Source: a virus
Taxonomy: Duplodnaviria; Heunggongvirae; Uroviricota; Caudoviricetes
Direction: 5' to 3' (one strand)
Length of the DNA: 13,235 nucleotides
Virus record (IMG/VR): IMGVR_UViG_2778260996_000018
Position 1 is the first letter of the stretch. The number at the start of each line of letters is the position of its first letter. A program made the translations under genes and the position numbers. Below are positions 1 to 13,235 of the stretch, one piece after another. The notes under the pieces were generated by a model, which had not been told where the DNA came from, made no database searches, and saw only the letters and a program-made list of their open reading frames with translations.

Positions 1-198
1 GTGGCGGCCTCAGTCCGGAACAATTTGAAAACAAGAACCTCGCTTAGGCCTGTGTCCATATTACGTGGGTAGGATCACGCAGGGGTCGGCCCATTTGAGC
101 TTCAGATAGGAACGTTTGAATTCCTTTCACAAAATACATCACATACTGAACGTGAACATTCCCACTTTGATCTTAAGGCCAAAAAGTATGCAGGACTA

Positions 199-1917
199 AT
201 GATTTTTAGGGATAGCTTGAGAGTATTACCTTATGGTCGAGTAGATAATGATTTCTTCCAGATAGAAGAAAGACGTTCATGGAATGCAGGGCGATATTAT
301 TGGTCTAATAGAAGGATTTTTGGTTATATTGGAATTACTCAATCCAGTAATAAAGAGCTGAAAGATAAGTCGGGGAGAGAGGGATTCATAAGAAACCAGG
401 CTGCAAGAGAACTGAAAACTATTATATCTAATTTGTTAACTGAACTTGCTGATAGATTTTTTGGTTCACGTTCTGATGACCGTAAAGAGCTTTTAGAACA
501 AGTTAAGCGTGAAAAAGAGTTAAGAAAATCTGCTCAACAACAAGCTCGAAAATCAACACAAAAAAGTTTTTCAGAAGCTTTGAAGAATCAGACACCAGTT
601 CTTGATGCTTCCTTGGAGGCTGTTAAAAGGCTGAAAACTAAGCTTGATAAAACTGATGGTTCGTTAGATTTAAACTATCTTAAAATTATAGACAGTGATC
701 TTACAAACTTAGATGCGTTGCGCAGTGAAATTAAAACGCCTATCAAACCTCCAAAACTTGGAATGTATGAAGAGAAATATAGAGACTACAGAGATAAATT
801 TAATGAGTTCTCTGCGTATATTCTACAAATGAAGTTAGCAATTAATAAACTTGATTCTGAATTAAATAAACTTGAGCCTTCATTGTCAGCGAAAAATCAC
901 CTTGAAAAAAATCAAGGTATTATTAATTCTAAACTAACTAAGTTTAATAACACGATAGAGGAGAAGATACATTCTCTTTTAAAAAAATGGGCCGATGAAA
1001 TAAAGGTTGATCGAAGTGATTATTATGCTAAAACTATATCAGTTGTTGATTCAATAGATAATGATTCACAAATTGAAAATGTGTTTAATTTGCTCGATAG
1101 TTTATATGTTGAGTCAGTTGATACCCTAACTTTCAAATATCAATCAATAATAAAAGGTCTCGATAGATTATTTGAAGGTATAAACTTAGATTCAGCATTC
1201 TCATTATCTGAAGAAGAACGCTCATATTTTGAAGAAAAAGCTAAAAGTTTAAACGCGCTTGCACAGTTAGGTATTAGTGTTGAGATAATATCTCATGAAC
1301 TTGAAGAAATGGATTCTATGGTAACCAGAGGACTAAACTCTCTTCCTACTTCTGTAAAAGAACACCCTGGTTTTTCATTGGCGTTAAATGCTCACAGATC
1401 GCTTACTCAACAAATACGTTTCTTATCACCTTTGAAAATATCAGGTTATCAATCCAGGCAGAGAATAACTGGAAAAAATATCATGGATTATGTCCTGAAG
1501 TTCTTTGGGGAGCGTTTCGAACGGCAACGAATAACTATTGAATTTAGTGAAGAGTTTAAGCAAATCGCAATAACAGATATACCATCAAGGATCTATCCTG
1601 TTTTTACTAATATTATCAACAATGCAATGTATTGGGTCAGTCTGTCAAATAATAGGCTCATAAAGATTGGTTTTGTGAATTCTTTGGTTATCATAGCAAA
1701 TTCTGGTCCGGCAATTGATACCGATGATATCCCGCGACTATTTGAACTATTTTATAGCAAAAGAGCAAATGGACATGGGGTAGGTCTGTATCTATGTCGA
1801 GAAAACCTTGCTGTTGCACATCATAAAATATGGTATTCAGAACCTGATGAAGGCGATAACTATTTAATAAAAGATGACGCTAATTTTGTGATCCAGTTCA
1901 ATGGAGTGGAGTTCTAA
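199..1917 (+). CDS. Cytoplasmic sensor histidine-kinase-like protein (unknown N-terminal region, long coiled coil, C-terminal HisKA + HATPase_c)
   Basis: 572-aa ORF. Motifs read from the translation in canonical order: H-box-like ISHELEEMDS, N-box FTNIINNAMYW, G1 IANSGPAID, F-box-like FELFYS, G2 GHGVGLYL. Central ~250 aa is K/E/L-rich (coiled-coil-like); no hydrophobic TM segment. AGGA lies 4 nt upstream of ATG 199. The frame is open without a start codon from 73 to 198, so a 5' truncation cannot be excluded. Confidence 0.75.
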   Translation: MIFRDSLRVLPYGRVDNDFFQIEERRSWNAGRYYWSNRRIFGYIGITQSSNKELKDKSGREGFIRNQAARELKTIISNLLTELADRFFGSRSDDRKELLEQVKREKELRKSAQQQARKSTQKSFSEALKNQTPVLDASLEAVKRLKTKLDKTDGSLDLNYLKIIDSDLTNLDALRSEIKTPIKPPKLGMYEEKYRDYRDKFNEFSAYILQMKLAINKLDSELNKLEPSLSAKNHLEKNQGIINSKLTKFNNTIEEKIHSLLKKWADEIKVDRSDYYAKTISVVDSIDNDSQIENVFNLLDSLYVESVDTLTFKYQSIIKGLDRLFEGINLDSAFSLSEEERSYFEEKAKSLNALAQLGISVEIISHELEEMDSMVTRGLNSLPTSVKEHPGFSLALNAHRSLTQQIRFLSPLKISGYQSRQRITGKNIMDYVLKFFGERFERQRITIEFSEEFKQIAITDIPSRIYPVFTNIINNAMYWVSLSNNRLIKIGFVNSLVIIANSGPAIDTDDIPRLFELFYSKRANGHGVGLYLCRENLAVAHHKIWYSEPDEGDNYLIKDDANFVIQFNGVEF

Positions 1918-3667
1918 TATGACAGTGGCAAATTATAATTCTCTTGTCCAGAAAACTTTCTGCGAAAATGCAATTCGTTCCGTTGTCATGATTGATGACG
2001 ATTTTCTGACGTATTCTGAATCAATCAGGGCGTTGAATAACGAAGTTGATTTAGACTACAACAAAATTGACTCATCTAAACGAGCCGCTACTCTTGAGAG
2101 CTTTTTTCAATCTAAAAATATGATTTGTGATGTTGACAATGGTTCTGTTAATTTCGATGTGGATCGGATTAGAAAATCAGATCTTATTATTGTAGATTAT
2201 CATCTTGATAATAATGCACCTGATAAAACACTTAAACTATTACAAGATTTGAAAGACTCCGATCATTTAAATATGATTGTAATATATACTAGAGAGAATT
2301 TAGAAACGGTTTGGATGCAGATATCATCGACTCTCAAAGGTGCTCTGGATATCAACAGCTTGATCATTGACTACGATAATGAAGATGTCCAAAGTTATTG
2401 GGAAGACGTTGTATTACCGAACTTAAATGATAATGGTAATAAAGCTCTCACAAGAGATGAAACAATAGCCTATATTAAAGACAGTAAGCCTTGTAGAAGA
2501 ATTAAAAGATTAATACATGATGATGCTGTGTTGGAGGAACAAAAGGATAAAAACTTCATTGCAAAAATGATTGCAGAATATGCTGTGTCTAGAAATGCAA
2601 TTATTTCTAGCAACACATCTGGCAATGTCATTCGGGGTGATGAAAGCGGAGTAAAATGGATTCAATGTGGTAATATCTTTGTCTCCCTATTTCATAAGGT
2701 TCAAGATGATCATGAAAACGATGGAGATAGGATTTGGCAAACTCTCAATGATTCTCTCATTGAATGGAAACCATCTTATTATCAGTTAATAAAATCTGAA
2801 ATTCAGAATGCAATCGAAGCTGAGGCTTTATCTTTTGTAAATCATTTGGCTAACGATCATTACGGTCAAGCTGCGTGGTTAAATGAGATATTAAAATCAG
2901 ACTCGCCTGATATTAGATGTAGAAATATTGACTTTGTATTTGGTAATTTATCAGAAGAGCTTTATCAAAGACTTAAAAATAATAATACGCTGGATGAATT
3001 TATCAAAAGTGTTTTTGATAGCTATTCAAATGAATACGCTAACAGCGGAGTTGCTGCATTGCTCCAATATTGCTCTTCAAAAATGGATCTGCCATCAAAT
3101 AATGATACTTATCACGAAATGTATCATGCTTTAAATATGAATTTGTCTTCAAAGAATTTTGAAGATGGTCATATTTCTACTGGCACTATTTTCTTTGATA
3201 CAGAGTCGAACAAATGGTATTTATGTGTATCTGCGGCATGTGATTTGGTTCCTACTCAGGGTAACGACCCTCACCATGTAAGATTAAGTCCGCACAGGCT
3301 CATTAAAGTTCTGGAGCTTTTTAACGCCAGTCAGAGTAAAGCATTGCCATTTGCTGAACATTCGAAATATATATATGTAATGCATAAAAATCAAAGAAAA
3401 TATCTCTCTATTTTCGAAGGGGATAAAACGCTTCCTGTTGTTGATTATATGGTGGTGTTGAATCATGGAACAACAGTTGATGGCGAAGAAAAAAATATTA
3501 TTTCTGCCGTGTTTTTAAGTAATATGGATGGCAACGTGCAAAATGTTCCTGTCCGACTCAAACTTAAATCTCAACTGAGAACTGGTTATGCAGAAAGATA
3601 TCAGGCTATAGCGTCTCAGTATAGCTCAAGGATTGGTGTGGATTATGTATCAATGATGCTACCATAA
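1901..3667 (+). CDS. Receiver (REC) domain protein fused to a ~430-aa uncharacterised C-terminal output domain
   Basis: 588-aa ORF. N-terminal receiver signature in order: VVMIDDD (acidic pocket), DLIIVDYHLDNN (phospho-acceptor Asp), NMIVIYTRE (conserved Thr). No HTH or other motif recognisable in the C-terminal part. Overlaps the kinase gene by 17 nt; the alternative start ATG 1919 sits just after the kinase stop and is preceded by GGAGTGGAG, so it may be the true start. Confidence 0.7.
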   Translation: MEWSSNMTVANYNSLVQKTFCENAIRSVVMIDDDFLTYSESIRALNNEVDLDYNKIDSSKRAATLESFFQSKNMICDVDNGSVNFDVDRIRKSDLIIVDYHLDNNAPDKTLKLLQDLKDSDHLNMIVIYTRENLETVWMQISSTLKGALDINSLIIDYDNEDVQSYWEDVVLPNLNDNGNKALTRDETIAYIKDSKPCRRIKRLIHDDAVLEEQKDKNFIAKMIAEYAVSRNAIISSNTSGNVIRGDESGVKWIQCGNIFVSLFHKVQDDHENDGDRIWQTLNDSLIEWKPSYYQLIKSEIQNAIEAEALSFVNHLANDHYGQAAWLNEILKSDSPDIRCRNIDFVFGNLSEELYQRLKNNNTLDEFIKSVFDSYSNEYANSGVAALLQYCSSKMDLPSNNDTYHEMYHALNMNLSSKNFEDGHISTGTIFFDTESNKWYLCVSAACDLVPTQGNDPHHVRLSPHRLIKVLELFNASQSKALPFAEHSKYIYVMHKNQRKYLSIFEGDKTLPVVDYMVVLNHGTTVDGEEKNIISAVFLSNMDGNVQNVPVRLKLKSQLRTGYAERYQAIASQYSSRIGVDYVSMMLP

Positions 3668-3680
3668 TTATTATATTTTA

Positions 3681-3720
3681 GGCGTGGTGATTTTTTTTCG
3701 CCATGCCTATTTTATATTTA
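3681..3720 (+). terminator. Possible weak intrinsic terminator after the receiver-domain gene
   Basis: ggcgtgg (3681-3687) can pair with ccatgcc (3701-3707) including one G-U pair, followed by a T-rich run tattttatattta. The loop is long and U-rich, so this is atypical. Confidence 0.3.
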
Positions 3721-3738
3721 TCATCACAATGATGTTGT

Positions 3739-4155
3739 TTATTTTTGTTTAAGTCTTCTAAGCTTCATGCATTCTAATGAGAATAATAATAGAGTTGTGC
3801 TGTATATAAAGCCAGAGTTAGTTAATAACTTTAAATTTAATGCTTCAGGATTTTCACTGAGAAAGTGAAAGGCATAAACTAAGTATACAGCTAAAGTAGC
3901 CGTTCCAATTGTTGGTCCAATATCGCCTTGATCATGAGGTTCAAGGTTTACATTGAACTTGAAGATTAGCCATTCAAATCCCCAAGTAAAAAAAACAACT
4001 AATATCATGGCTGCGAATAATTTCGCGATGTTATCTGCTGATGGATTCATCAGAACAGATTGTTTCTGAAAAAATTCACAAAGTGAGAGTCCGAAAAAAA
4101 TAAAAAAAAGTGGTCTGGAACTAAATTTTTCAAAAACTTTGAATAGGGTTTCCAT
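3739..4155 (-). CDS. Small polytopic membrane protein (about 4 predicted TM helices), function unknown
   Basis: 138-aa ORF with four hydrophobic stretches (PLFFIFFGLSLCEFF, LFAAMILVVFFTWGFEWLIF, GPTIGTATLAVYLVYAFHFL, GFIYSTTLLLFSL). Starts 38 bp downstream of the integrase stop on the same strand, with a GAAGG-like sequence upstream of the ATG. Confidence 0.5.
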   Translation of the reverse strand: METLFKVFEKFSSRPLFFIFFGLSLCEFFQKQSVLMNPSADNIAKLFAAMILVVFFTWGFEWLIFKFNVNLEPHDQGDIGPTIGTATLAVYLVYAFHFLSENPEALNLKLLTNSGFIYSTTLLLFSLECMKLRRLKQK

Positions 4156-4193
4156 TTTCTTTACCTTCAGGATTATATTAGCTATTCTGATAC

Positions 4194-5465
4194 TTAGGCT
4201 ACCAGAGCATTTGATCTTTGAGCTTGAACGTAATCACTCCACCATTGCATCAAACTCTGTCGCTCTATCAGATATTCTGCACGATTGTATGCTGCGATAA
4301 TTTCATCTTTTTTCGAGTGGGCAAGCGCTGCCTCAAGAACTTCAGCTCTGAATTTACCAGACTCCTCTGCCGCTGTTCGTGCAATAGAACGCATACCGTG
4401 AGCTACAAGCTCGCCTCCGAACCCCATTCGGATGATAGCTGCGTTGGCTGTTTGTTCATGCATATGATTAAGAGGCGCTTTTATGCTGGGGAAAACCCAT
4501 TCTCTATGCCCACTTATTGATTTCATTAATTCAAGGATGCGCAAAGCTTCTTTACTCAAAGGAACTTTGTGAAGCTTTTTCATTTTCATGAAATCAGCAG
4601 GAATGTTCCAAATGCTGTTGGTTGTATCAATATCAGACCACCTTGCGCGAACGGCTTCACCCGGACGAACCCATGTCAACAATTGCCATTCAATTAGCAT
4701 ACGTGTTTCCAACCGGATTGACGCATTCGTCAAAGATTCCATAAACCTTGGCAATTCGCTTGGGGGAAGGGCAGGCATATTTTGCTTTTTTGGTTTACTG
4801 AATCTTTGACCAAGGTTGTCAGCCGGGTTGAACTCAATAAGTTCTTCAGTAGCTGCCCACCGGAAGATTTCATTCAGACGTGAAATGATACGGCGTAGAG
4901 TTTCCAATACGCCTCGTTGCTCAATAGGATCAAGGTGTTGTTTTAAGAGCTTAGGTCGGATCTCATTGATAGGGACATTACCCAGACCGGGAAAGACATT
5001 TCTCTCTAAGCTGCGCCAGATGTCTGCTGCATGGTCTTGTGAGATACCTGATGTCTTTACCTTCTCATCTAACCATTTCCGCGCTACGGCTTGGAGAGTG
5101 TGCTCAGTAGCACTCTTTAATGCCTTCGCCTTATCGTTGTTATGGATTTGGGGATCAACACCATTTGCCAGAAAGGAGAGATATTCATCACGTAAGGCTC
5201 TGGCTCTTGCAAGGGTAAGGTGAGGATATGTCCCAAGGCTCATTTTGGTTCTTTTCTTGCTCACTGGTACTGCATACCTGAAATACCAATTTTTCTTGCC
5301 TCCTTTCGCCAAAGGAGCGATTCGTAGAATCAGACCATCACCGTCAAACAAGTTGATTTCTTTATCGGCTGGCTTGGTGCTTTTGATTTCAGTGTCAGTG
5401 AGCTTCTTAGCGATTTTTGCCATTTTGGGACCCTCGGTTTTTGGACCCTTCTTAGTGGGTCCCAT
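4194..5465 (-). CDS. int: P4-type tyrosine site-specific integrase
   Basis: 423-aa ORF. N-terminal arm-binding-type motif (LTDTEIKS..KP..KEINLFDGDGLILRI..GKKNWYFRY) typical of P4-family integrases; C-terminal catalytic region with VAHGMRSIARTAAE (H-x-x-R) and the terminal tyrosine region IIAAYNRAEYLIERQ. The more likely start is the internal ATG at 5423 (MAKIAKKLTDTEIK), which has a GAGGG Shine-Dalgarno; the first ATG at 5465 has none. The start points at the ssrA remnant, as with intA next to ssrA in E. coli K-12. Confidence 0.9.
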   Translation of the reverse strand: MGPTKKGPKTEGPKMAKIAKKLTDTEIKSTKPADKEINLFDGDGLILRIAPLAKGGKKNWYFRYAVPVSKKRTKMSLGTYPHLTLARARALRDEYLSFLANGVDPQIHNNDKAKALKSATEHTLQAVARKWLDEKVKTSGISQDHAADIWRSLERNVFPGLGNVPINEIRPKLLKQHLDPIEQRGVLETLRRIISRLNEIFRWAATEELIEFNPADNLGQRFSKPKKQNMPALPPSELPRFMESLTNASIRLETRMLIEWQLLTWVRPGEAVRARWSDIDTTNSIWNIPADFMKMKKLHKVPLSKEALRILELMKSISGHREWVFPSIKAPLNHMHEQTANAAIIRMGFGGELVAHGMRSIARTAAEESGKFRAEVLEAALAHSKKDEIIAAYNRAEYLIERQSLMQWWSDYVQAQRSNALVA

Positions 5466-5588
5466 TCAGGGTGCCATAACTCGTAGTTCTCAGCAATTCT
5501 CACTGGACGACAATAGACGTAAAAAAGCCCGCAGAGCTTGTGCTGTGTGGGCTTAGTAGACTTCATTGAACTTCAAACAACTAAAAAG

Positions 5589-5624
5589 TGGTGGAGCTGG
5601 CGGGAGTTGAACCCGTATCCGAAA
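5589..5624 (-). other. Remnant of the 3' end of ssrA (tmRNA): attachment-site repeat, not an intact gene
   Basis: tggtggagctggcgggagttgaacccgtatccgaaa matches the reverse complement of the E. coli tmRNA 3' terminus (T-arm, acceptor 3' strand, CCA) with 2 mismatches, from memory. Sequence beyond 5625 has no resemblance to the rest of ssrA (no tag-peptide region). Confidence 0.8.
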
Positions 5625-5881
5625 AATTCTTAACCAATTGAATATTAATGATTTTTCTAATTTAAAATACCTCACGTGCATTTTACGTGCATATTGTAGT
5701 ACCTCTAACGTCCTGATTCTGTCCAACATTTTGAAGTGTTTAGGCGCCACTGGGGCGGTGATTAGCGCTGTTTTGTGCTGTTCATAGCACTTCAAGACTA
5801 TTCAATTCAGAGCAATCGTTGAAGAATTACCCGTAAGGTAATATCATACTATTTAGGTAACTGCGGTTATCACCATCAAGG

Positions 5882-5918
5882 GCCACTGATGACGCTGTTA
5901 TCATCAGTGGCTTTTTGT
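5882..5918 (+). terminator. Intrinsic (rho-independent) terminator-like hairpin with no obvious upstream plus-strand gene
   Basis: Perfect 11-bp stem gccactgatga / tcatcagtggc with 8-nt loop cgctgtta, followed by ctttttgt. The reverse complement is not followed by a T-tract, so it is plus-strand specific. Confidence 0.6.
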
Positions 5919-5958
5919 ACCTTCACTGCACAGCCAGTGAAGTGTTGAGGAGACTAGC

Positions 5959-6300
5959 ATGAGAACAGTAGCGAGAAGATCGATACAGACGATTGAGCGT
6001 CGGACTCAACTCGTCAGTTCTTTTGTTGACTCAAACACAGCAAACGAGTTCTTCGTGAGAAGACTGAGTGATCGTGTCTCCCCGGCACGTCAGCTGTTTA
6101 TTGTGACATTGAACAATGAGGTTCGTGACGGTGACGTGATCCCGTTCGCTGAGATCGCCATGAACAAAGAAAAATTGCGCTATGTTGTGAAGCCAGCAGA
6201 TCAGTATCCTCAGTATGTAAGCAGTAATCTGCTGAAGAAAATTGAAGCGGCAATTGCTCTATACATGCAGAAGAACTACAGGGAAATTAACTACCATTAA
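5959..6300 (+). CDS. Hypothetical protein, first gene of a two-gene moron operon
   Basis: 113-aa ORF with GAGGAG Shine-Dalgarno 7-13 nt upstream of the ATG; followed 11 nt later by the next ORF. No family recognised. Confidence 0.55.
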   Translation: MRTVARRSIQTIERRTQLVSSFVDSNTANEFFVRRLSDRVSPARQLFIVTLNNEVRDGDVIPFAEIAMNKEKLRYVVKPADQYPQYVSSNLLKKIEAAIALYMQKNYREINYH

Positions 6301-6311
6301 AAGGTTGCTGA

Positions 6312-7079
6312 ATGGCTCCTGCGTTAATACCTTCATATAACAAGGACTTGAACATTACGCCATTTGGCGAAAAACGTCTTATTGAGTCATTCTATTTTTT
6401 CACTGCCGAGGCTGGCTTACTGAGGGCTGATGAGTACATTGTCAGTTCTGGTGAGTTTCAGTACTACTTGGATGTGTATCAACTGGGATGTTCCACCGAC
6501 GACTTTTTTTTAGACTATGGCAGTGACCTTCTTGATTCGAAGGTTCCAATGCAGGATCTGGTCAATACCCTCTTGGGTCTTGATATGGTAGACGATAACA
6601 AAACGATAAGAATAGGTCGTATACAGTTCAACGACTTTAATTTTATCGAAGAGAACGGTCAGATGATGACCGGAAAGCAAGTGAAAAGCGCTGTTATCGC
6701 ACAGGATTTCCAATCAGCAGGTTTGGCGCGTGAGATCTATAAAATGCTTGCGCGAAAGCATGAGTTTCTCATCTGCGATAACATTCAAAGTATTGCCGGT
6801 GGTGCTCTTTGGGCTAGTAGCATCATTCGAATTGCCGAGGTACGGATCTACAATTCACGCACGAAGAAATTTATGGACATACTTGGTCCAGGTGCGCGTG
6901 GCGTTTCAGGTACTTTGCCATGGAGTGCGAATGATCTGTCTGTAGATGAGATTGTTCGCTGGGGTCGTGCGTATGATGATGAAAACTGTTGTCGTCACAT
7001 TGTACATGTTATCTGTAAGGACCGACTCATTGACGATCAATTTCATGATTATGTTTCGATAGGTGGCGCGACAGAATAA
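6312..7079 (+). CDS. Hypothetical protein, second gene of the two-gene moron operon
   Basis: 255-aa ORF, soluble-looking, immediately followed by a strong terminator. No family recognised. Confidence 0.6.
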   Translation: MAPALIPSYNKDLNITPFGEKRLIESFYFFTAEAGLLRADEYIVSSGEFQYYLDVYQLGCSTDDFFLDYGSDLLDSKVPMQDLVNTLLGLDMVDDNKTIRIGRIQFNDFNFIEENGQMMTGKQVKSAVIAQDFQSAGLAREIYKMLARKHEFLICDNIQSIAGGALWASSIIRIAEVRIYNSRTKKFMDILGPGARGVSGTLPWSANDLSVDEIVRWGRAYDDENCCRHIVHVICKDRLIDDQFHDYVSIGGATE

Positions 7080-7084
7080 CCATC

Positions 7085-7115
7085 AAAAAGACCCGGCATT
7101 TGCCGGGTTTTTTCT
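7085..7115. terminator. Bidirectional intrinsic terminator between convergent genes
   Basis: aaaaag-a cccggc attt gccggg tttttt: GC stem with 4-nt loop, flanked by an A-tract upstream and a T-tract downstream. Sits between the stop of the 255-aa gene (7079) and the integrase stop (7121). Confidence 0.75.
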
Positions 7116-7120
7116 TCAAA

Positions 7121-8299
7121 TCACTTCTTCATTCCAGATTCCATTGCGGTTTTCCCGTCGTATTCAGCCAGGTATTTACCGTAATTGCGGAACAGCATTT
7201 CCGGCCCCTTATGCCCCATCTGCCCGGCAAGCCAGAAAAGGTTTACACCCTGGCTAATGTGTCTGGTGGCGAATGTGTGGCGCGTCTGGTACGGGTTACG
7301 GTAGCGCACACCAGCTTTTTTCAGGGTCGGCACCCATGCTTTTTTACGGATAGCGTCGGCGTTCGTCCAGGGATCTCCCGTTTTCGGATCGCTGAATATG
7401 AACTCACTTTTCATAAAGGTGTATTGCTTCTGCGCCTGCAGGGCCGCCAGCGCCTCACTGTTCAGCTCCACCTTACGGGTACCGGCTTTTGTCTTGGTGC
7501 CTTTAAGTACCCCTACGACACTGGCCGCCTGTATGTGCGCTGTATTACCTATAAAGTCGATATCGGTCCAACGTAATGCGCATAGCTCAGAGCTGCGTAG
7601 CCCTGTATTGAAGGCGAAGCGGAACAGATTCTGCCATTCCTGATACTTGCAGTGCTGATATATGGCACTGGTTTCCGCAGGCGCAAACGGATCAACTTCG
7701 TAATCGTCGGCGTTCGGTTTACTGTCGACCACGTGATACCGGCTGGCGCTGACAAGAGTTACCGGGTTAATAGTCAACAGGCCATCAGTTACAGCCTCAT
7801 CAATGGCGCTGCGCAGAAATGACAGGTTATTCCTGATTGTTTTCAGCTTAGTTTTTCGGCTGGCTATCCAATTTTTTAGTACCGCAGGCGTCAATTCTGT
7901 TACATGTAGTTTATGTAGTTCTGATAGTGCTGATAGACATTTTTCGTAACCGCCAATGGTTGACGGCGACAGATTGCGGTTCATGCAAATTTTCAGGTAT
8001 TCATCAAGATAGGACTTAATATTTTTGGTTTTCTTTACTACACCGAATAACTCCAGTTTTTTGGAACTGGGGAAATATTTCGCATATTCAAACGTTCCGC
8101 TGGCGATCTGATTTTGTATCTCCCCTAGCAGGCGCTCAGCATATTTAATACCACGTGTATTTGCCTCAAGCCGAGACAGGGGCTCCCTGCAAAGAACCCC
8201 TTTATATGTGAAAGTGATAACTAGTGTTGAAGCAGTTTTATGCTTACGAATAGTTACTCCTCTTGGCAGAGATAATAATCCTTGTTCTTTCTTGCCCAT
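7121..8299 (-). CDS. int: Lambda-type (phage) tyrosine integrase
   Basis: 392-aa ORF. Catalytic signature near the C-terminus: PYQTRHTFATRHISQGVNLFWLAGQMGHKGPEMLFRNYGKYL (R, H-x-x-R, H, Y). AGAGG Shine-Dalgarno upstream. Its 3' end faces the att remnant, as in lambda where int is transcribed toward attP. Confidence 0.9.
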   Translation of the reverse strand: MGKKEQGLLSLPRGVTIRKHKTASTLVITFTYKGVLCREPLSRLEANTRGIKYAERLLGEIQNQIASGTFEYAKYFPSSKKLELFGVVKKTKNIKSYLDEYLKICMNRNLSPSTIGGYEKCLSALSELHKLHVTELTPAVLKNWIASRKTKLKTIRNNLSFLRSAIDEAVTDGLLTINPVTLVSASRYHVVDSKPNADDYEVDPFAPAETSAIYQHCKYQEWQNLFRFAFNTGLRSSELCALRWTDIDFIGNTAHIQAASVVGVLKGTKTKAGTRKVELNSEALAALQAQKQYTFMKSEFIFSDPKTGDPWTNADAIRKKAWVPTLKKAGVRYRNPYQTRHTFATRHISQGVNLFWLAGQMGHKGPEMLFRNYGKYLAEYDGKTAMESGMKK

Positions 8300-8463
8300 T
8301 TTGAAACCTCTATTAAGTCGACCCAGCGTTCTTTAACTCCGTCGACTTTTAATACATGAACCCCTTCTTTCCATATTCCTCTTTGTATCCGTTTGTTAAC
8401 GGCATCAACCGTTTCTCCCGCGTCGCGGCAGTAGGTTGATATAGGCACGCAATCCAGCCCCAT
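8254..8463 (-). CDS. xis: Probable excisionase / small DNA-binding recombination directionality factor
   Basis: 69-aa ORF directly upstream of int and overlapping it by 46 nt (xis-int arrangement of lambdoid phages). Small basic protein; GAGGTGA Shine-Dalgarno. Assignment is by position and size, not by a recognised motif. Confidence 0.6.
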   Translation of the reverse strand: MGLDCVPISTYCRDAGETVDAVNKRIQRGIWKEGVHVLKVDGVKERWVDLIEVSKWARKNKDYYLCQEE

Positions 8464-8471
8464 ACATCACC

Positions 8472-8618
8472 TCACATAACACTCAGCCCACGGCAGTGGC
8501 ACCACACGTCAAACATTCGCTTCACAACTTCACGACAGTAGAAGCCGTCAACATCTCGCGTCAGGTTATAGCGATTGCCGTAACGCTGGTGGACCCATTG
8601 TTCAAATGCTTTATTCAT
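8472..8618 (-). CDS. Small Cys/His-rich hypothetical protein (48 aa), below the ORF-track size cut-off
   Basis: Translated by hand: MNKAFEQWVHQRYGNRYNLTRDVDGFYCREVVKRMFDVWCHCRGLSVM. GGAAG Shine-Dalgarno 6 nt upstream; start lies 3 nt after the stop of the upstream 92-aa ORF and its stop 8 nt before xis, fitting the coupled operon. Confidence 0.35.
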   Translation of the reverse strand: MNKAFEQWVHQRYGNRYNLTRDVDGFYCREVVKRMFDVWCHCRGLSVM

Positions 8619-8621
8619 TCT

Positions 8622-8900
8622 TTACTTCCTTTTTATGGCTCGTAATTTTTTCAGGTGCTTTTCCTGCTCAGTGTCCGCGAGAATTTTGCGGTACTCCTGG
8701 TGGTCAATATGTTCGAACAGGCAGTTTAACTCACCAATGCGTACCCGCCCGGATCGTCCGTCCATCCGTCGAAAGAACACTGAGTGCTCAGTGATGCGAG
8801 TAATCACCACGGGGTATCCGGCTCTGTCCGTGTATATCTGACCGCGTTGAATCAAAGCGAACATGTGGTTATCCCCATCGACAAATTGAGAACACAACAA
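8622..8900 (-). CDS. Hypothetical prophage early-region protein
   Basis: 92-aa ORF, co-directional and tightly packed in the early-left operon. No family recognised. Confidence 0.5.
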   Translation of the reverse strand: MLCSQFVDGDNHMFALIQRGQIYTDRAGYPVVITRITEHSVFFRRMDGRSGRVRIGELNCLFEHIDHQEYRKILADTEQEKHLKKLRAIKRK

Positions 8901-8987
8901 ACGCTACTGCGAATACCACCCCCAGAGTTACGATTGCATCAGGCCAGCTCATTGATTCACCTCCTGCGGCGTCCTGGTATTCGATTT

Positions 8988-9556
8988 TCATTCCGGATGC
9001 TCCTGAGCCACATTGAAATCGCCATGATCACGACAAGGCATCACAACAAATTCAGGATTGCCATACATTGAGTTGATGATGGAATCAAACTGAATTCTGA
9101 CCGCTTGCCCGTCACCGGAGGAACGTAACTGGACGGGAATAAATTTACGCTCACGACCAAACATCTTCTCTGGATAACTCAGGTAACCCGCCTGGATCAC
9201 CGGGTGTGTACAGAGGTCAAATTTTTTCGGAATGATGCGTTCCAAATCCGGAAAACAACCGTCCACCAATTTAATGCCGGTAATGGACAGCCGGCGCTGA
9301 AACTGGTCGCGATGAACAGGATCGGCTCTTTACTAAAAATCAGCTCTGTCGTTTCGGCTTTGGCCGGGACGCCACCTTCGAACTGGACAATGATGTTTTT
9401 CTTCGTCCGGATGCCGTGAGTCATGCGCAGTGCTACGAAACCATTGGTTGCCTCAATATGTTTTGGCGTGATGTGAAGACCGTTCAGGTAATAACGAACG
9501 TCGTTTTTAGCAGCGCACACCAGAGCGGCGCGAATAAGTTTTGACTGGATGATCAT
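8988..9556 (-). pseudogene. Sliding-clamp (DnaN, DNA polymerase III beta) domain II-III-like gene, split between two reading frames
   Basis: The N-part (ORF 9197-9556) contains DVRYYLNG, an exact 8-mer shared with E. coli DnaN as I recall it. The C-part (ORF 8988-9269 frame) contains KLVDGCFPD (DnaN: KLVDGRFPD) and EFVVMPCR (DnaN: AYVVMPMR) in the right order. The two halves are in different frames, separated by about 56-59 nt near 9287-9345 with in-frame stops. Confidence 0.5.
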
Positions 9557-10302
9557 GCTTTATCCTCCCATCCGATTACCTGAAAAAGCCCCATCTTCGG
9601 GTGATACCAGCGTGTGCCGCGTGGTTCAGCCTCTGACATCATTTGGTGGAACGCCGCCATAAATGTCTCAAGCTCGACGACAGCCCTGCGAGACAACAGA
9701 CCGTCCGGAGTCATAAATTCGTGCGTGTCGGTAGGGATGTGGTAGGCGTTGACCAGATTCCGACACTTGGCGTCACTCATTCCGCTTTTGGCTACCACCT
9801 GGCGGTAACCGACATATCCGGTGCGCATTGTGCCGCGTTTGATGTTCTCCACAGCTTTGGTGACCGTTTCGATCTTCTCTTCAACATGACTCAGGCGCTT
9901 CTGCTGGCGAACGGCATCGGCGGCCATTGCAGCGATCATCTCCATTTCCGTCAGCGGCGCGTGAGTTCGGAAATAGCTGTTAACCAGTTCGCGCTGAACC
10001 TGCCATGCAAGAGCATCGTTAAAAGGCTTCGTCAACATCAGGTAACCAGACTCGAAAAGAATGATCCCTTTGGCAGTTCGCGCGGCAAAGGCATCAGAAA
10101 GTGACTCCGTACGTATTACGTCCGCAGTCATTTCAAGAAAATCCACCCCTTCGATAAAGTGAGAACGGTTGCGGTTAAACGCAGCACGGGCGGTACCTTC
10201 CGGGCGCTGGTGGACGTCATCAATTATTGCAAATGTCACAACACGCTGACCGCGATATTCGATTACCGGAAACTGTTTGTTGTTGATGGTTACAATATTC
10301 AT
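9553..10302 (-). CDS. ORF6N-domain phage antirepressor-like protein
   Basis: N-terminus MNIVTINNKQFPVIEYRGQRVVTFAIIDDVHQRPEGTARAAFNRNRSHFIEGVDF resembles the ORF6N/antirepressor N-terminal domain. Start chosen at ATG 10302 (GGAG 6 nt upstream) rather than the ORF-track ATG at 10377, which would overlap the upstream gene. The stop overlaps the start of the clamp-like gene (ATGA). Confidence 0.6.
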   Translation of the reverse strand: MNIVTINNKQFPVIEYRGQRVVTFAIIDDVHQRPEGTARAAFNRNRSHFIEGVDFLEMTADVIRTESLSDAFAARTAKGIILFESGYLMLTKPFNDALAWQVQRELVNSYFRTHAPLTEMEMIAAMAADAVRQQKRLSHVEEKIETVTKAVENIKRGTMRTGYVGYRQVVAKSGMSDAKCRNLVNAYHIPTDTHEFMTPDGLLSRRAVVELETFMAAFHQMMSEAEPRGTRWYHPKMGLFQVIGWEDKA

Positions 10303-10345
10303 TTTTATCTCCAGACAGCCCGGCGTGTAATACCGGGCATATGTA

Positions 10346-11173
10346 TTACTTAACCTGAATAAATGGTGTGTTGGCACCGCTGGTCATGTATTGCGGCAGT
10401 GTACCGTTCCACTTGTTGATGGCTTCCAGCTCCATAACACCGGGGTTCTGGCGCAGAGCTTCACCGCGTAAACGAATAGCATCGGCTTCGGCCTGGGCTT
10501 TTGTGCGAATCGCATCTGCCTGTCCGGCAGCTTCCGCGCGCAACATGTTGGCTTCCGCTTCGCGCTGTTTTACTTCCTGCTCGCGTTGCAGGGTTTTCTG
10601 GTTCGCCGTGACTTTGGCATTAATGCTGTCGATAACAGTAGGTGGGTACTCCGGCTTACCCACATATGAGAGGCTCATTACCTGAATACCGATGGGCGTC
10701 ATTTCTTCCTGAATGTCTTTAAGAGCTGCATCCAGCAGCTCAGACTTGCCGCCGTCGATAAATTTGTCGGTGGTCATTTTGCTGGCCAGTCGGTTGAGTG
10801 CGTCGGCTATCTTCTGGCGCAGGTCGGTGTCGGTAATGTCGTCCACGCCTTTGCGGTAGGTCTGAAAGACTGTGGTAACTTTGGATGGATCAACTTTGTA
10901 GGCCACGCCGATGTGATAGCCGATGGTTGTACCGTCACTCATCTGGAAACTGAATGGATCATCGTAGGTCTTCATCTGCTTAAAGGTCGGGAAGATGTAA
11001 ACCTCAGTGTTCCATCCCGTCCAGTAGCGCCCAACACCGACCACTTCACCGACGCCTTTATCGTCGCCCAGTTTGTTTACTTTGATGCCCACATTACCAG
11101 GCTCAACGCGATCGCAACCGACAAGGCCAATGGTCGGCAGAACAAGGGCTAAAGCAAAAAGTAATTTTTTCAT
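10346..11173 (-). CDS. SPFH/Band-7 (prohibitin/HflK-like) domain lipoprotein
   Basis: 275-aa ORF. Signal peptide with lipobox (MKKLLFALALVLPTIGLVGC), SPFH-like core, and a C-terminal A/E/Q/R-rich coiled coil (QREQEVKQREAEANMLRAEAAGQADAIR...) as in HflK/HflC-type proteins. Confidence 0.8.
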   Translation of the reverse strand: MKKLLFALALVLPTIGLVGCDRVEPGNVGIKVNKLGDDKGVGEVVGVGRYWTGWNTEVYIFPTFKQMKTYDDPFSFQMSDGTTIGYHIGVAYKVDPSKVTTVFQTYRKGVDDITDTDLRQKIADALNRLASKMTTDKFIDGGKSELLDAALKDIQEEMTPIGIQVMSLSYVGKPEYPPTVIDSINAKVTANQKTLQREQEVKQREAEANMLRAEAAGQADAIRTKAQAEADAIRLRGEALRQNPGVMELEAINKWNGTLPQYMTSGANTPFIQVK

Positions 11174-11358
11174 CTTTTATCCTTAGAAAAAGAAAGACCC
11201 TTATAAATGGCATAAATGCAGGGCGGGGTCAGACACGCCAGAGCAAAGCCAGAAATCACTGCTACCGTATCCTTCATTGATATGAGGGCCGGAACGATTA
11301 ATCCGTAAATACATGTGATAATTGCCAGTGATATAACTATTCTGAAATAAATGTTCAT
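11170..11358 (-). CDS. Small two-TM membrane protein, translationally coupled to the SPFH lipoprotein gene
   Basis: 62-aa ORF with two hydrophobic helices (IVISLAIITCIYGLIVPALI, VAVISGFALACLTPPCIYAIY). Strong AGGAGG Shine-Dalgarno 4 nt upstream; ATGA stop/start overlap with the SPFH gene. Confidence 0.6.
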   Translation of the reverse strand: MNIYFRIVISLAIITCIYGLIVPALISMKDTVAVISGFALACLTPPCIYAIYKGLSFSKDKR

Positions 11359-11418
11359 GGTCCTCCTGATGTATTCGGCTTGCCTTATTTAATTGCGTCA
11401 TGGTTAATTTCGTTTACG

Positions 11419-11811
11419 TCAGAATGGTTTTGTTGCCATCAGTTCGTAATATCCGGCGCTCCATGTGTCATATTTTCTGAACCATTTTTCTGTATACTGT
11501 TTCCTGGCGATGAGTCTGCGCAGTCGTCTGATTGTTCGCTGGTGTGCGCGGGTATACTCTGTGGTTGATTCTCCACGTTTCCATATCTCATTCCTGTTGA
11601 AGATAAAACGCTTGTCAGGATAGCGTTGTCGGAATCCTGAACGTTCAAAAGCGCGGGTGGTCATAAAGAATGCCAGGTAACGAATTGCCGTTTTTCGGGT
11701 GAGGCATTTTTTTGTTCTTCCGTGGCGTGTTACAAAAAATAACGGGCCGACGGGTGTATCATGTTTCTGTAATGCCTGGTCAATGGTGCTGGCGGTGCGG
11801 TTGTCGATCAT
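11419..11811 (-). CDS. Hypothetical basic protein
   Basis: 130-aa ORF, Arg/Lys-rich; ATGA overlap with the upstream 72-aa ORF. No family recognised. Confidence 0.5.
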   Translation of the reverse strand: MIDNRTASTIDQALQKHDTPVGPLFFVTRHGRTKKCLTRKTAIRYLAFFMTTRAFERSGFRQRYPDKRFIFNRNEIWKRGESTTEYTRAHQRTIRRLRRLIARKQYTEKWFRKYDTWSAGYYELMATKPF

Positions 11812-12026
11812 TTCTTTATTTCTCCCGAATAACGTTCATGACTCATTACTTCCCAGTTCCGGCCGTCGTCTTTCGATAACAGCCGCCAGCGACGGTTAAC
11901 CTTCAGACTGAGATATCCGGTGCGCTGTATCCGATGCGGAAATATCCGTCGGCATCGGTACAACAACAGGACCTGCAATGCCTGCCGGTGGATCCGCTCA
12001 GGAATGCGTGTTGCTGTTAATGCCAC
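11808..12026 (-). CDS. Hypothetical small basic protein
   Basis: 72-aa ORF, Arg-rich, overlapping the upstream ORF by 29 nt. Coding status uncertain. Confidence 0.35.
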   Translation of the reverse strand: MALTATRIPERIHRQALQVLLLYRCRRIFPHRIQRTGYLSLKVNRRWRLLSKDDGRNWEVMSHERYSGEIKK

Positions 12027-12213
12027 CGGTTTCCTCCTGAGCAGGTGCTGTTATCTGATACCCCGCTCTTTCTGCCAGCCGTATGAATGTATCCATGCTG
12101 GCAATCAGCTCGCCATCGCGGACTTTGCAGACACCTGTGACTTGGCCATTTTCAATTGTCATAACGATCTGCACTTTTTCGTGCACAACAGATACAGGGG
12201 ATAAATTAGCCAT
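11998..12213 (-). CDS. Hypothetical small protein
   Basis: 71-aa ORF; its start overlaps the stop of the upstream 119-aa ORF by one nucleotide. Confidence 0.4.
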   Translation of the reverse strand: MANLSPVSVVHEKVQIVMTIENGQVTGVCKVRDGELIASMDTFIRLAERAGYQITAPAQEETGGINSNTHS

Positions 12214-12572
12214 CAGTTAATTCCTCCGCTGATATATTTTTCTTTCGCGTAATCAATAATCTCTTGAAAAAGGTTGTCTATAATTAACTTTCCGGTTTCA
12301 GTCAGGTATTCAGTATGTTGATTAATCCCGATAGCATTCTGGTATGCAGTGTGGATTTCGGTTTCACCCTCCACCCGGCCCAATTCACCACGGGTAATAC
12401 CTTCGAAGCGTAACAGCAACTGGTTTATAAACTGTTCAGTTATTTCTATGGTCGTAATGTTCCCATCAGGAAGGTCAACAATAAGCAGATTACCACCTGT
12501 TTTACGTTTTATTCGATGGAGTGCCGCAACAGCTATACGGCGACGATATGTATTAATGGGTTCATGTGTCAT
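12213..12572 (-). CDS. Hypothetical protein
   Basis: 119-aa ORF, first sizeable gene after a ~180-bp intergenic region. A 32-codon ORF ends 3 nt before its start. Confidence 0.5.
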   Translation of the reverse strand: MTHEPINTYRRRIAVAALHRIKRKTGGNLLIVDLPDGNITTIEITEQFINQLLLRFEGITRGELGRVEGETEIHTAYQNAIGINQHTEYLTETGKLIIDNLFQEIIDYAKEKYISGGIN

Positions 12573-12756
12573 TTGTTATTTCCCGTATGCTTTCCTGAGA
12601 AACAGTATTGCAACTGACCAGTATCCTGCATTAGCCATTAATAATGCGGTTTTATAAGCACTTCTGTTTTTCATGCATCACCACCATTTTCAGGTTGTGG
12701 AAATTCCCGACCAGAGACCGTTATGTTTTTATGGGTGATTGTTTATTGAGTTTTCT

Positions 12757-12948
12757 TTATTCGTTGCGCAGTGTGTCGATATACGCGTAAGCCATTTCAC
12801 AGGTTTTATTCATGGAGCGAATGAGGCAACATAAATAATCGTCTGTCTCTCCTGAGTCGGGCGAATTCTTAAATATAAATTCAAGCATTGATGTATTCTC
12901 TTTTATTTGTGCTGCCACTTCCTCAAGAATATTTAATGGAGTTTTCAT
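12757..12948 (-). CDS. Hypothetical small acidic protein
   Basis: 63-aa ORF, acidic, ATGA-coupled to the upstream ORF. Confidence 0.45.
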   Translation of the reverse strand: MKTPLNILEEVAAQIKENTSMLEFIFKNSPDSGETDDYLCCLIRSMNKTCEMAYAYIDTLRNE

Positions 12949-13125
12949 GTTCTTTGCTCCTTAAATGCATCGCATGCGCTTCTGGCGTATTGTTGTGCCA
13001 GTAAAAAGATATCATCCGAAAGTTCATCACATTCTTCATCACCGGAAGCCGAAATGATTAACCCCGCTTCAAGCAGTACGGCAATGTGATGAAAAGTTGT
13101 CTCCGGTTCGTTGGTAAGGCCTTTG
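12945..13125 (-). pseudogene. 5'-truncated gene fragment (small acidic protein) interrupted by IS1
   Basis: The ORF-track start at 13139 is a TTG inside the IS1 terminal repeat (13126-13139), so the first ~5 codons derive from IS1. The native protein has no internal Met, so its 5' end has been replaced by the insertion. Confidence 0.45.
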
Positions 13126-13235
13126 GGTGATGCTGCCAACTTACTGATTTAGTGTATGATGGTGTTTTTGAGGTGCTCCAGTGGCTTCTGTTTCTATCAG
13201 CTGTCCCTCCTGTTCAGCTACTGACGGGGTGGTGC
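13126..13235 (+). mobile_element. IS1 insertion sequence, left end (terminal inverted repeat plus start of insA), truncated by the window edge
   Basis: ggtgatgctgccaacttactgat... through ...cagctactgacggggtggtgc matches the IS1 terminus and insA 5' region as I recall it, including the part of IS1 carried in pACYC184 from Tn9. Confidence 0.85.
13181..13235 (+). CDS. insA: IS1 InsA, N-terminal 18 codons (partial; runs off the window)
   Basis: GTG start followed by codons for ASVSISCPSCSATDGVV, the known InsA N-terminus (zinc-finger region). Confidence 0.8.
   Translation, partial: MASVSISCPSCSATDGVV

Follow-up and report, generated by a model that had tools for sequence, protein, structure and literature searches.

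An atypical receiver protein with an unassigned C-terminal module, and its decayed operon in an island-prophage region shared with Escherichia coli

The receiver protein and its output module

A response-regulator-like open reading frame (ORF) lies on the + strand of IMGVR_UViG_2778260996_000018, a sequence recorded in IMG/VR as a virus of the Caudoviricetes; the whole stretch of 13,235 nucleotides (nt) is referred to here as the window. Its product joins a receiver to a C-terminal output module that belongs to no family assignable by sequence and that may, tentatively, be an effector. The ORF is a genuine gene. Amino acid (aa) residues are numbered from the first ATG, and the true start is likely to be Met7 (nt 1919), giving 582 aa, since this start is used by RefSeq (WP_000214990.1, from nt 1919, labelled 'response regulator receiver domain') and is present in 89% of 205 homologues. 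The same 205 members, at 22-99% identity, are the source of all conservation figures given below. The receiver gene and the sequence upstream of it contain the following features.

1-75, + strand: terminal part of an IS3-family element, whose transposase pseudogene has its end at window position 47 in the identical RefSeq locus L001
76-1917, + strand: 5'-truncated histidine-kinase-like gene, lacking the N-terminal paraMORC GHKL ATPase; the annotated ORF is 199-1917, 572 aa
1901-3667, + strand: response-regulator-like ORF, 588 codons from the first ATG
1973-2350, + strand: receiver strands 1-4 (aa 25-150), with Asp32/Asp33, the predicted phospho-acceptor Asp99, and Thr130
2351-2596, + strand: helical insert within the receiver (aa 151-232), from AlphaFold secondary structure; weakly conserved and acidic
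2597-2776, + strand: receiver strand 5 and helix 5 (aa 233-292), with Trp253, Phe260, Lys266, and the Trp289-x-Pro291 junction
2777-3148, + strand: output part 1, a helical bundle (aa 293-416), with a conserved SEIQNxxE helix at its start and invariant Asn412 at its end
3149-3625, + strand: output part 2, a beta-barrel and C-terminal helix (aa 417-575) with a weakly MazF/CcdB/Kid-like fold
3626-3664, + strand: C-terminal tail, Arg577-x-Gly579-x-Asp581, 97-99% conserved, pLDDT 58-68

The only Pfam match to the 588-aa ORF is Response_reg_2 (PF19192; cut-off 27 bits), at aa 25-181 with 109.1 bits and E 3.6e-31, and PF19192 is matched by all 44 homologues that were scanned individually with E values up to 10. 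In an AlphaFold model of the whole protein, made with 101 homologues as input (pLDDT 87.3, pTM 0.80), the helical insert occupies aa 151-232, strand 5 runs from aa 259 to 265 and up to Lys266, and helix 5 spans aa 274-289, so that the (beta-alpha)5 fold of CheY-like receivers is present. Asp32, Asp33, Asp99, Thr130, and Lys266 are kept in 94-100% of the members, with Lys266 itself at 98%. A conserved Lys at the end of a split strand 5 is also described in the available parts of Bellieny-Rabelo, Pretorius & Moleleki 2021 (PMC8011034). The N-terminal ~290 aa are an atypical yet complete receiver, with every residue of the phospho-chemistry present.

A preliminary description of this sequence had ended the receiver at the motif NMIVIYTRE (aa 124-132) and had assigned the remaining ~430 aa, from nt 2330, to an output domain without a family. 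The motif is instead strand 4 of the receiver, containing Thr130; the Response_reg_2 match continues to aa 181 and the fold to ~290, and nt 2330 falls at aa 144. Because the receiver fold finishes only near aa 290, the output is aa 293-588 (nt 2777-3664), which is ~300 residues. The absence of an assignable family is nevertheless correct at the level of sequence, because the region has zero matches in Pfam, NCBIfam, PADLOC, and PDB sequences, searched as the single protein and with two family profiles. There is no Pfam match to it in any of the 44 homologues, and a PHROGs search returned only the families to which it itself belongs, all of them function-less. The preliminary description was also right that the protein has no P-loop, transmembrane (TM) helix, helix-turn-helix (HTH), or nuclease signature: a Walker A motif is absent, the highest Kyte-Doolittle mean over 19 residues is 0.96 and there is no TM-like segment, neither an HTH nor a winged helix is matched in the 44 members or in PDB profile searches, and Pfam, PADLOC, and NCBIfam scans find no nuclease family in either this protein or the kinase-like protein of the window.

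A second AlphaFold model, of aa 290-588 (pLDDT 87.2, pTM 0.86), contains a helical bundle, then a beta-rich domain with a C-terminal helix, and then a short tail. Asn412, Gly428, and Cys447 are 100% conserved, Asp448, Arg560, and Arg566 are also conserved, and the Arg577-x-Gly579-x-Asp581 tail is nearly invariant yet modelled at low confidence. The comparison of homologues for conserved residues that had been suggested in the preliminary description has identified two acidic positions, Asp448 and Asp581, beside Asn412, Cys447, Arg560, Arg566, and Arg577. The architecture is constant, the best 150 of the 626 clusters (50% identity) being same-length proteins or fragments, with no instance among these 150 of the output domain in another architecture. 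A receiver-only profile search for other effector fusions likewise returned just fragments of this architecture. Judged from these searches, the output module appears to be found almost only in the receiver-fusion architecture.

The conserved three-gene unit and its decayed copies

In the available parts of Bellieny-Rabelo 2021 (PMC8011034) the family is defined as pairs of a Response_reg_2 and a HEF_HK protein linked to C5 methylases, with the Response_reg_2-type proteins (PF19192) designated OG_4. The neighbouring C5 methylase is described there as frequent, not obligatory. The receiver and H-box regions are characterised in those parts of the paper, and the C-terminal ~300 aa are given no fold or role in them. 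The Pfam models of that study match both window ORFs above threshold, which places them in the same family.

The kinase-like partner in the window, ORF 199-1917, overlaps the receiver ORF by 17 nt and is matched by HEF_HK (26.1 bits, cut-off 24.1 bits) and HATPase_c (44.4 bits). It corresponds to residues 419-989 of an intact 990-aa Pantoea orthologue, with 82% identity. The intact protein has an N-terminal MutL/Hsp90-like GHKL module, an H-box, and an ATP-binding domain of the sensor-kinase type; the His-Glu pair of the H-box, with its His at position 785 in L007 numbering, does not vary among 14 aligned kinase-like proteins, and the family profile matches sensor kinases in the PDB with E 2.7e-12. 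Phosphorylation of Asp99 by the cognate kinase is a prediction; what the sequences themselves show is the conservation of the receiver residues and the invariant H-box of the partner. No nuclease motif or family was detected in the kinase-like protein, and in the intact form the PADLOC REase_II model finds a match in the GHKL part alone.

The receiver gene and its neighbours were surveyed in 43 loci. These come from six phyla and include Gamma- and Alphaproteobacteria, Acidobacteria, Gemmatimonadetes, Verrucomicrobia, and Desulfobacterota. A kinase-like gene for 970-1,010 aa is directly upstream of the receiver gene in all 43, usually overlapping it, and a C5 methylase adjoins in 40. In the remaining three loci, the methylase is 3 kb away in one, the locus is cut by the contig end in another, and there is none in the third. 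Vsr is found in 14 of the 43 loci, a 138-aa membrane protein in 4, and HNH_2 in 3. The linkage to the kinase-like gene, C5 methylase, and Vsr reported in 2021 is thus reproduced, and no other universal effector or gene was found across the 43 loci. The methylase, the kinase-like ATPase, and the receiver protein are the whole conserved unit; the module is a C5 DNA methylase, a ~990-aa protein with a paraMORC GHKL ATPase and a histidine-kinase core, and the receiver protein. The family is widespread, with its 626 clusters spread over many phyla.

Some loci carry additional genes. A 195-aa ORF is just upstream of the methylase in the Enterobacterales loci L007 (3118-3705), L002, L008, L010, and L011; Pfam and PADLOC give no match to it, and it may be a control protein or some additional component. 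In Roseomonas (L034, 2479-5004) an 841-aa ORF with no Pfam match is present between the methylase and the kinase-like gene. An integrative element in ~212 other complete E. coli genomes carries a triad that is divergent but intact. In E. coli O55:H7 DEC5E (L052, NZ_CP038383.1 4908313-4915505; triad proteins WP_000643690.1, WP_000236931.1, and WP_000886597.1), which is one of these, the methylase is of the C5 type, the kinase-like protein has 989 aa, and the receiver protein has 607 aa. The triad there is followed by a 'phosphorothioated DNA-binding restriction endonuclease', and the element also has ArdC and a MobH relaxase.

The system in the window is a relic. Compared with the systems of Bellieny-Rabelo 2021, it is without the methylase and the HATPase_c_3 part of the kinase. 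Nucleotides 1-5,624 match, with 99.9-100% identity, an island carried by 560 of 5,426 complete E. coli genomes (~10%). In L001 the IS3 pseudogene of this island is followed, in this order, by a 572-aa 'ATP-binding protein', WP_000214990.1, a hypothetical protein of 138 aa, a P4-type integrase, and ssrA. There is no C5 methylase in the window or in this identical RefSeq locus, the IS3 being in its expected place, and homology to the intact kinase-like gene begins at ~nt 76-82, directly after the IS3 end. The IS3 insertion or an associated deletion has removed the methylase gene together with ~380 codons from the start of the kinase-like gene. A related enterobacterium (L007) retains the intact order at the same smpB-flanked site, with a hypothetical protein of 195 aa, the methylase, a 991-aa kinase-like protein, a 582-aa receiver protein that is 87% identical to the window copy, and the integrase, and the window is therefore a deletion derivative. 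Since the methylase and the GHKL ATPase of the kinase are gone, the receiver protein is most likely never activated, and the window copy is most likely inert under any model of its output. Part of the kinase region that lies between the GHKL module and the H-box and has no family is kept in the window at 199-1300, where it looks coiled-coil-like.

A second, independent relic is present in a Gemmatimonadetes metagenome-assembled genome (L038, 3905-9833), where a DDE transposase abuts a kinase-like gene lacking its first ~133 codons, the methylase is absent, and the receiver gene is intact. In both relics, then, a transposase is in place of the methylase and the kinase N-terminus, and the receiver is kept. 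The two cases, which at n=2 are anecdotal, fit a situation in which loss of the methylase is tolerated only after the sensor ATPase has been disabled. IS3 or ISVsa5 interrupts the relic receiver gene in a few E. coli genomes, and a 453-aa receiver form ending at aa 459 accounts for 1,605 member sequences and is common in draft assemblies; these interruptions and the frequency of the 453-aa form point to ongoing decay. The window is as such a case study of decay, in which the methylase and sensor ATPase have been lost together. With ~212 intact divergent triads and ~560 broken ones in complete genomes, E. coli is natural test material for the system.

Proposed function of the output module

The best reading of the output module is that of a phosphorylation-gated effector, an assignment made tentatively and with somewhat less than even confidence. 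In such a system the methylase would mark self DNA and the GHKL/kinase protein would sense a non-self state, such as unmethylated incoming DNA. The kinase would then autophosphorylate on the His of the H-box and pass the phosphate to Asp99, which would release the C-terminal module to act as the effector, possibly by toxin-like action against nucleic acid or a host target. The support for this is circumstantial. The conserved unit is only the methylase, the kinase-like ATPase, and the receiver protein; the C-terminal model resembles only MazF/CcdB/Kid toxins; the output holds the invariant polar residues Asn412, Cys447, Arg560, Arg577, and Asp581; both relics fit the loss of the methylase only with the sensor ATPase disabled; and the anti-phage system Ambrosia pairs its receiver with a separate, essential nuclease.

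Ambrosia (AbrR-AbrA-AbrB-AbrC-AbrD), described in a 2025 preprint and validated in Pseudomonas (bioRxiv 10.1101/2025.09.30.679545), is the closest validated relative. It is made up of an XRE regulator, an N6 methylase, AbrB (HATPase_c_3 and HATPase_c), the 209-aa receiver AbrC, and the HNH nuclease AbrD; all five genes are required for defence, as is the phospho-acceptor Asp60 of AbrC (bioRxiv 10.1101/2025.09.30.679545). In each of the two systems one operon encodes a methylase, a receiver protein, and a kinase-like protein that contains HATPase_c_3 and HATPase_c. The L007 kinase-like protein has both domains, as AbrB does, and the window copy keeps the C-terminal half only. The N-terminal part of AbrB and the intact orthologue of the window kinase share 27% identity (E 2e-10) with a collinear RVxPYG motif. 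AbrC differs in being a canonical Response_reg protein with no detectable similarity to the receiver family profile (hhalign probability 0.2). The loci also differ, Ambrosia having an N6-adenine methylase, XRE, and a separate HNH, whereas those of the receiver family have a C5 methylase, no XRE seen, and HNH_2 in 3 of 43. The comparison suggests that the short receiver and separate nuclease of Ambrosia have as their counterpart here a long receiver with a fused output, usually with no separate nuclease.

Detocs, described by Rousset et al. in 2023, reportedly consists of the kinase DtcA, the buffer receiver DtcB, and the receiver-effector DtcC. Its defence logic is similar, with His-to-Asp phosphotransfer activating a receiver-fused effector. 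The receiver family differs from it in having no buffer receiver gene, PNP, or other known effector, and in the N-terminal GHKL ATPase module of the kinase-like protein and the linkage to a methylase, which is obligatory in intact loci. A PADLOC scan of both window proteins gave no match to DtcA, DtcB, or DtcC, with two weak unrelated matches only. The paraMORC GHKL ATPases of restriction-modification systems (Iyer, Abhiman & Aravind 2008; PMC2292703) share the N-terminal MutL/Hsp90-like GHKL module, in operons with cytosine methylases and Vsr. These families carry or adjoin recognisable nucleases (PD-(D/E)xK, HNH), in contrast to the system described here, and they lack both a kinase core and a receiver as partner; the 2008 paper does not contain the word 'receiver' (PMC2292703). 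GHKL-Shedu VcSduA (PMC12137116) is similar in that an ATPase gates an effector. As for a Type II restriction-modification system, the window has no methylase and neither protein contains a nuclease family.

The sole structural resemblance of the C-terminal model, to the MazF/CcdB/Kid toxins, is weak. In a comparison against 48,164 PDB chains, 10 of the 12 best matches belong to this one toxin superfamily, each matched over 85-93 of ~105 residues at a root-mean-square deviation of about 3 A. MazF, PemK, Kid, and CcdB have an SH3-like barrel and are free proteins of ~110 aa; here the barrel is fused behind a receiver and a helical bundle, is without sequence or profile similarity to these toxins, has no evident catalytic Arg/Thr pattern of the MazF type, and has no cognate antitoxin gene beside it. 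Since no homology evidence corroborates the likeness it is kept as a lead only, and the MazF/CcdB-like barrel of the model should be seen as a structural lead, not as family membership.

Several points weigh against an effector. In the Foldseek and profile check proposed in the preliminary description, no known output domain was matched (Foldseek best E 0.017, TM about 0.1), and hhalign against four MazF-type sequences gave a probability of 0.1; neither result supports homology to MazF. The PemK/CcdB Pfam models are untouched by all 44 members, the position of the MazF catalytic Arg, judged by pattern, is not conserved, and there is no antitoxin-like linked gene in the 43 loci, the only recurrent neighbours being the methylase, the kinase-like gene, Vsr, HNH_2, and the 138-aa membrane protein. 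The barrel is merely mildly basic (median isoelectric point, pI, 7.8) and the helical part is acidic (median 5.0). In ~10% of complete E. coli genomes the receiver ORF has stayed intact although the methylase is missing, a persistence which indicates that the ORF is not toxic in that state. In the intact kinase-like protein of L007 (5024-7999), ~630 residues (~140-770) that separate the GHKL module from the H-box belong to no assigned family, and effector activity could sit there. Finally, signalling that controls restriction-modification or transcription was proposed in the available parts of Bellieny-Rabelo 2021 (PMC8011034), and in the Ambrosia model the receiver AbrC acts in transcriptional control (bioRxiv 10.1101/2025.09.30.679545).

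It is quite possible, though not the favoured view, that the toxin likeness is a chance match of a generic small beta-barrel, in which case the fold would say nothing about function. The negative Foldseek, hhalign, and Pfam results are as expected from this, but chance would then have to account for the concentration of the best PDB matches in a single toxin superfamily.

It is unlikely that the output is a DNA-binding or transcription module, through which phosphorylation would switch the methylase operon or other genes with no enzymatic effector involved. This is the kind of role proposed for the family in 2021, in the available parts of that paper (PMC8011034), and for AbrC in Ambrosia, where expression goes up on infection (bioRxiv 10.1101/2025.09.30.679545), and the barrel is slightly basic. 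However, neither an HTH nor a winged helix is matched, the acidity of the helical part speaks against it, a DNA-binding surface seldom has an invariant Cys and Asn, and the three-gene core would be left without anything to act on an invader.

It is rather improbable that the output is a non-catalytic adaptor docking on the GHKL/kinase protein or on DNA, with the activity in the unassigned middle of the kinase or in a nuclease, for example HNH_2, whether linked or not: separate nucleases are considered to be the partners of paraMORC ATPases in restriction systems (PMC2292703), the PADLOC Type II restriction-enzyme model matches the kinase GHKL region, HNH_2 or a 'phosphorothioated DNA-binding restriction endonuclease' adjoins some loci, the conserved flexible RxGxD tail resembles a docking peptide, and it is the kinase N-terminus, not the receiver, that is lost in both relics, but a linked nuclease is found in few loci (HNH_2 in 3 of 43), none is recognisable in the kinase-like protein, and the invariant polar residues are found inside the folded barrel as well as in the tail.

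Were the C-terminal module an effector, the system would represent a new coupling of epigenetic self-marking, two-component signalling, and a toxin-fold output, and would account for operons that have a methylase yet no recognisable nuclease. The fuller proposal, that the triad provides a restriction-like immunity by His-to-Asp phosphotransfer and without a conventional restriction enzyme, a DNA-clamping GHKL ATPase detecting unmethylated DNA and thereby setting free a MazF/CcdB-fold effector not recognised before, is more doubtful; the receiver protein would then be a toxin gated by methylation and triggered by phosphorylation.

The label of candidate novel effector given in the preliminary description can therefore be kept only in part. 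An effector is the best reading on gene context, the weak toxin fold, and Ambrosia, but the copy in the window is broken, and the family and its genomic linkage were published in 2021 (PMC8011034), the output being unassigned in the available parts of that paper. Already known are the gene family, the two-component-like character of its members, and the restriction-modification setting, and a distant relative has been validated by experiment. What is new is the corrected domain map, the confidently modelled two-part output with its weak toxin-fold likeness, the set of invariant output residues, the methylase, kinase, and receiver as the entire conserved unit, and the relic status of the window and of ~10% of complete E. 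coli genomes.

Surroundings of the relic in the window

Downstream of the receiver gene, the window contains the following features.

3679-3709, + strand: terminator-like hairpin, 12 nt past the stop codon, with a 12-bp stem and then a T run
3739-4155, - strand: hydrophobic small protein, 138 aa, with homologues in 4 of 43 loci
4194-5465, - strand: the island's P4-type tyrosine integrase, matched by Arm-DNA-bind_3, Phage_int_M, and Phage_integrase in Pfam and by PRK09692 in NCBIfam (440 bits)
5589-5624, - strand: ssrA 3' end, ~36 nt, an attachment-site copy; identity with the ssrA-flanked L001 stops at 5624

The hairpin is probably the end of the operon, and a promoter scan around the relic genes gave signal at background level. 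The 138-aa protein is located between the receiver gene and the integrase, and is at the same position in four Enterobacterales loci; its only matches are to a PHROG family of no assigned function and, weakly, to Na_H_Exchanger. The GC content changes in a sharp step, from 32-36% in the island cargo (1-4000) to 41-54% in the integrase and adjoining prophage (4000-13235); the AT-rich island thus stands against 44-54% GC over the remainder of the window.

An ssrA/smpB region after the integrase, as in L001, was considered and ruled out, since there are 36 nt of ssrA followed by prophage; no tmRNA was detected in the window. From 5589 on, the ssrA remnant is followed by a second mobile element, a prophage arm with its own integrase (7121-8299, - strand), ORF6N, SPFH, ParE-like, and other small genes. 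The same tandem arrangement of island and prophage is found in E. coli O103:H2 PV16-126.

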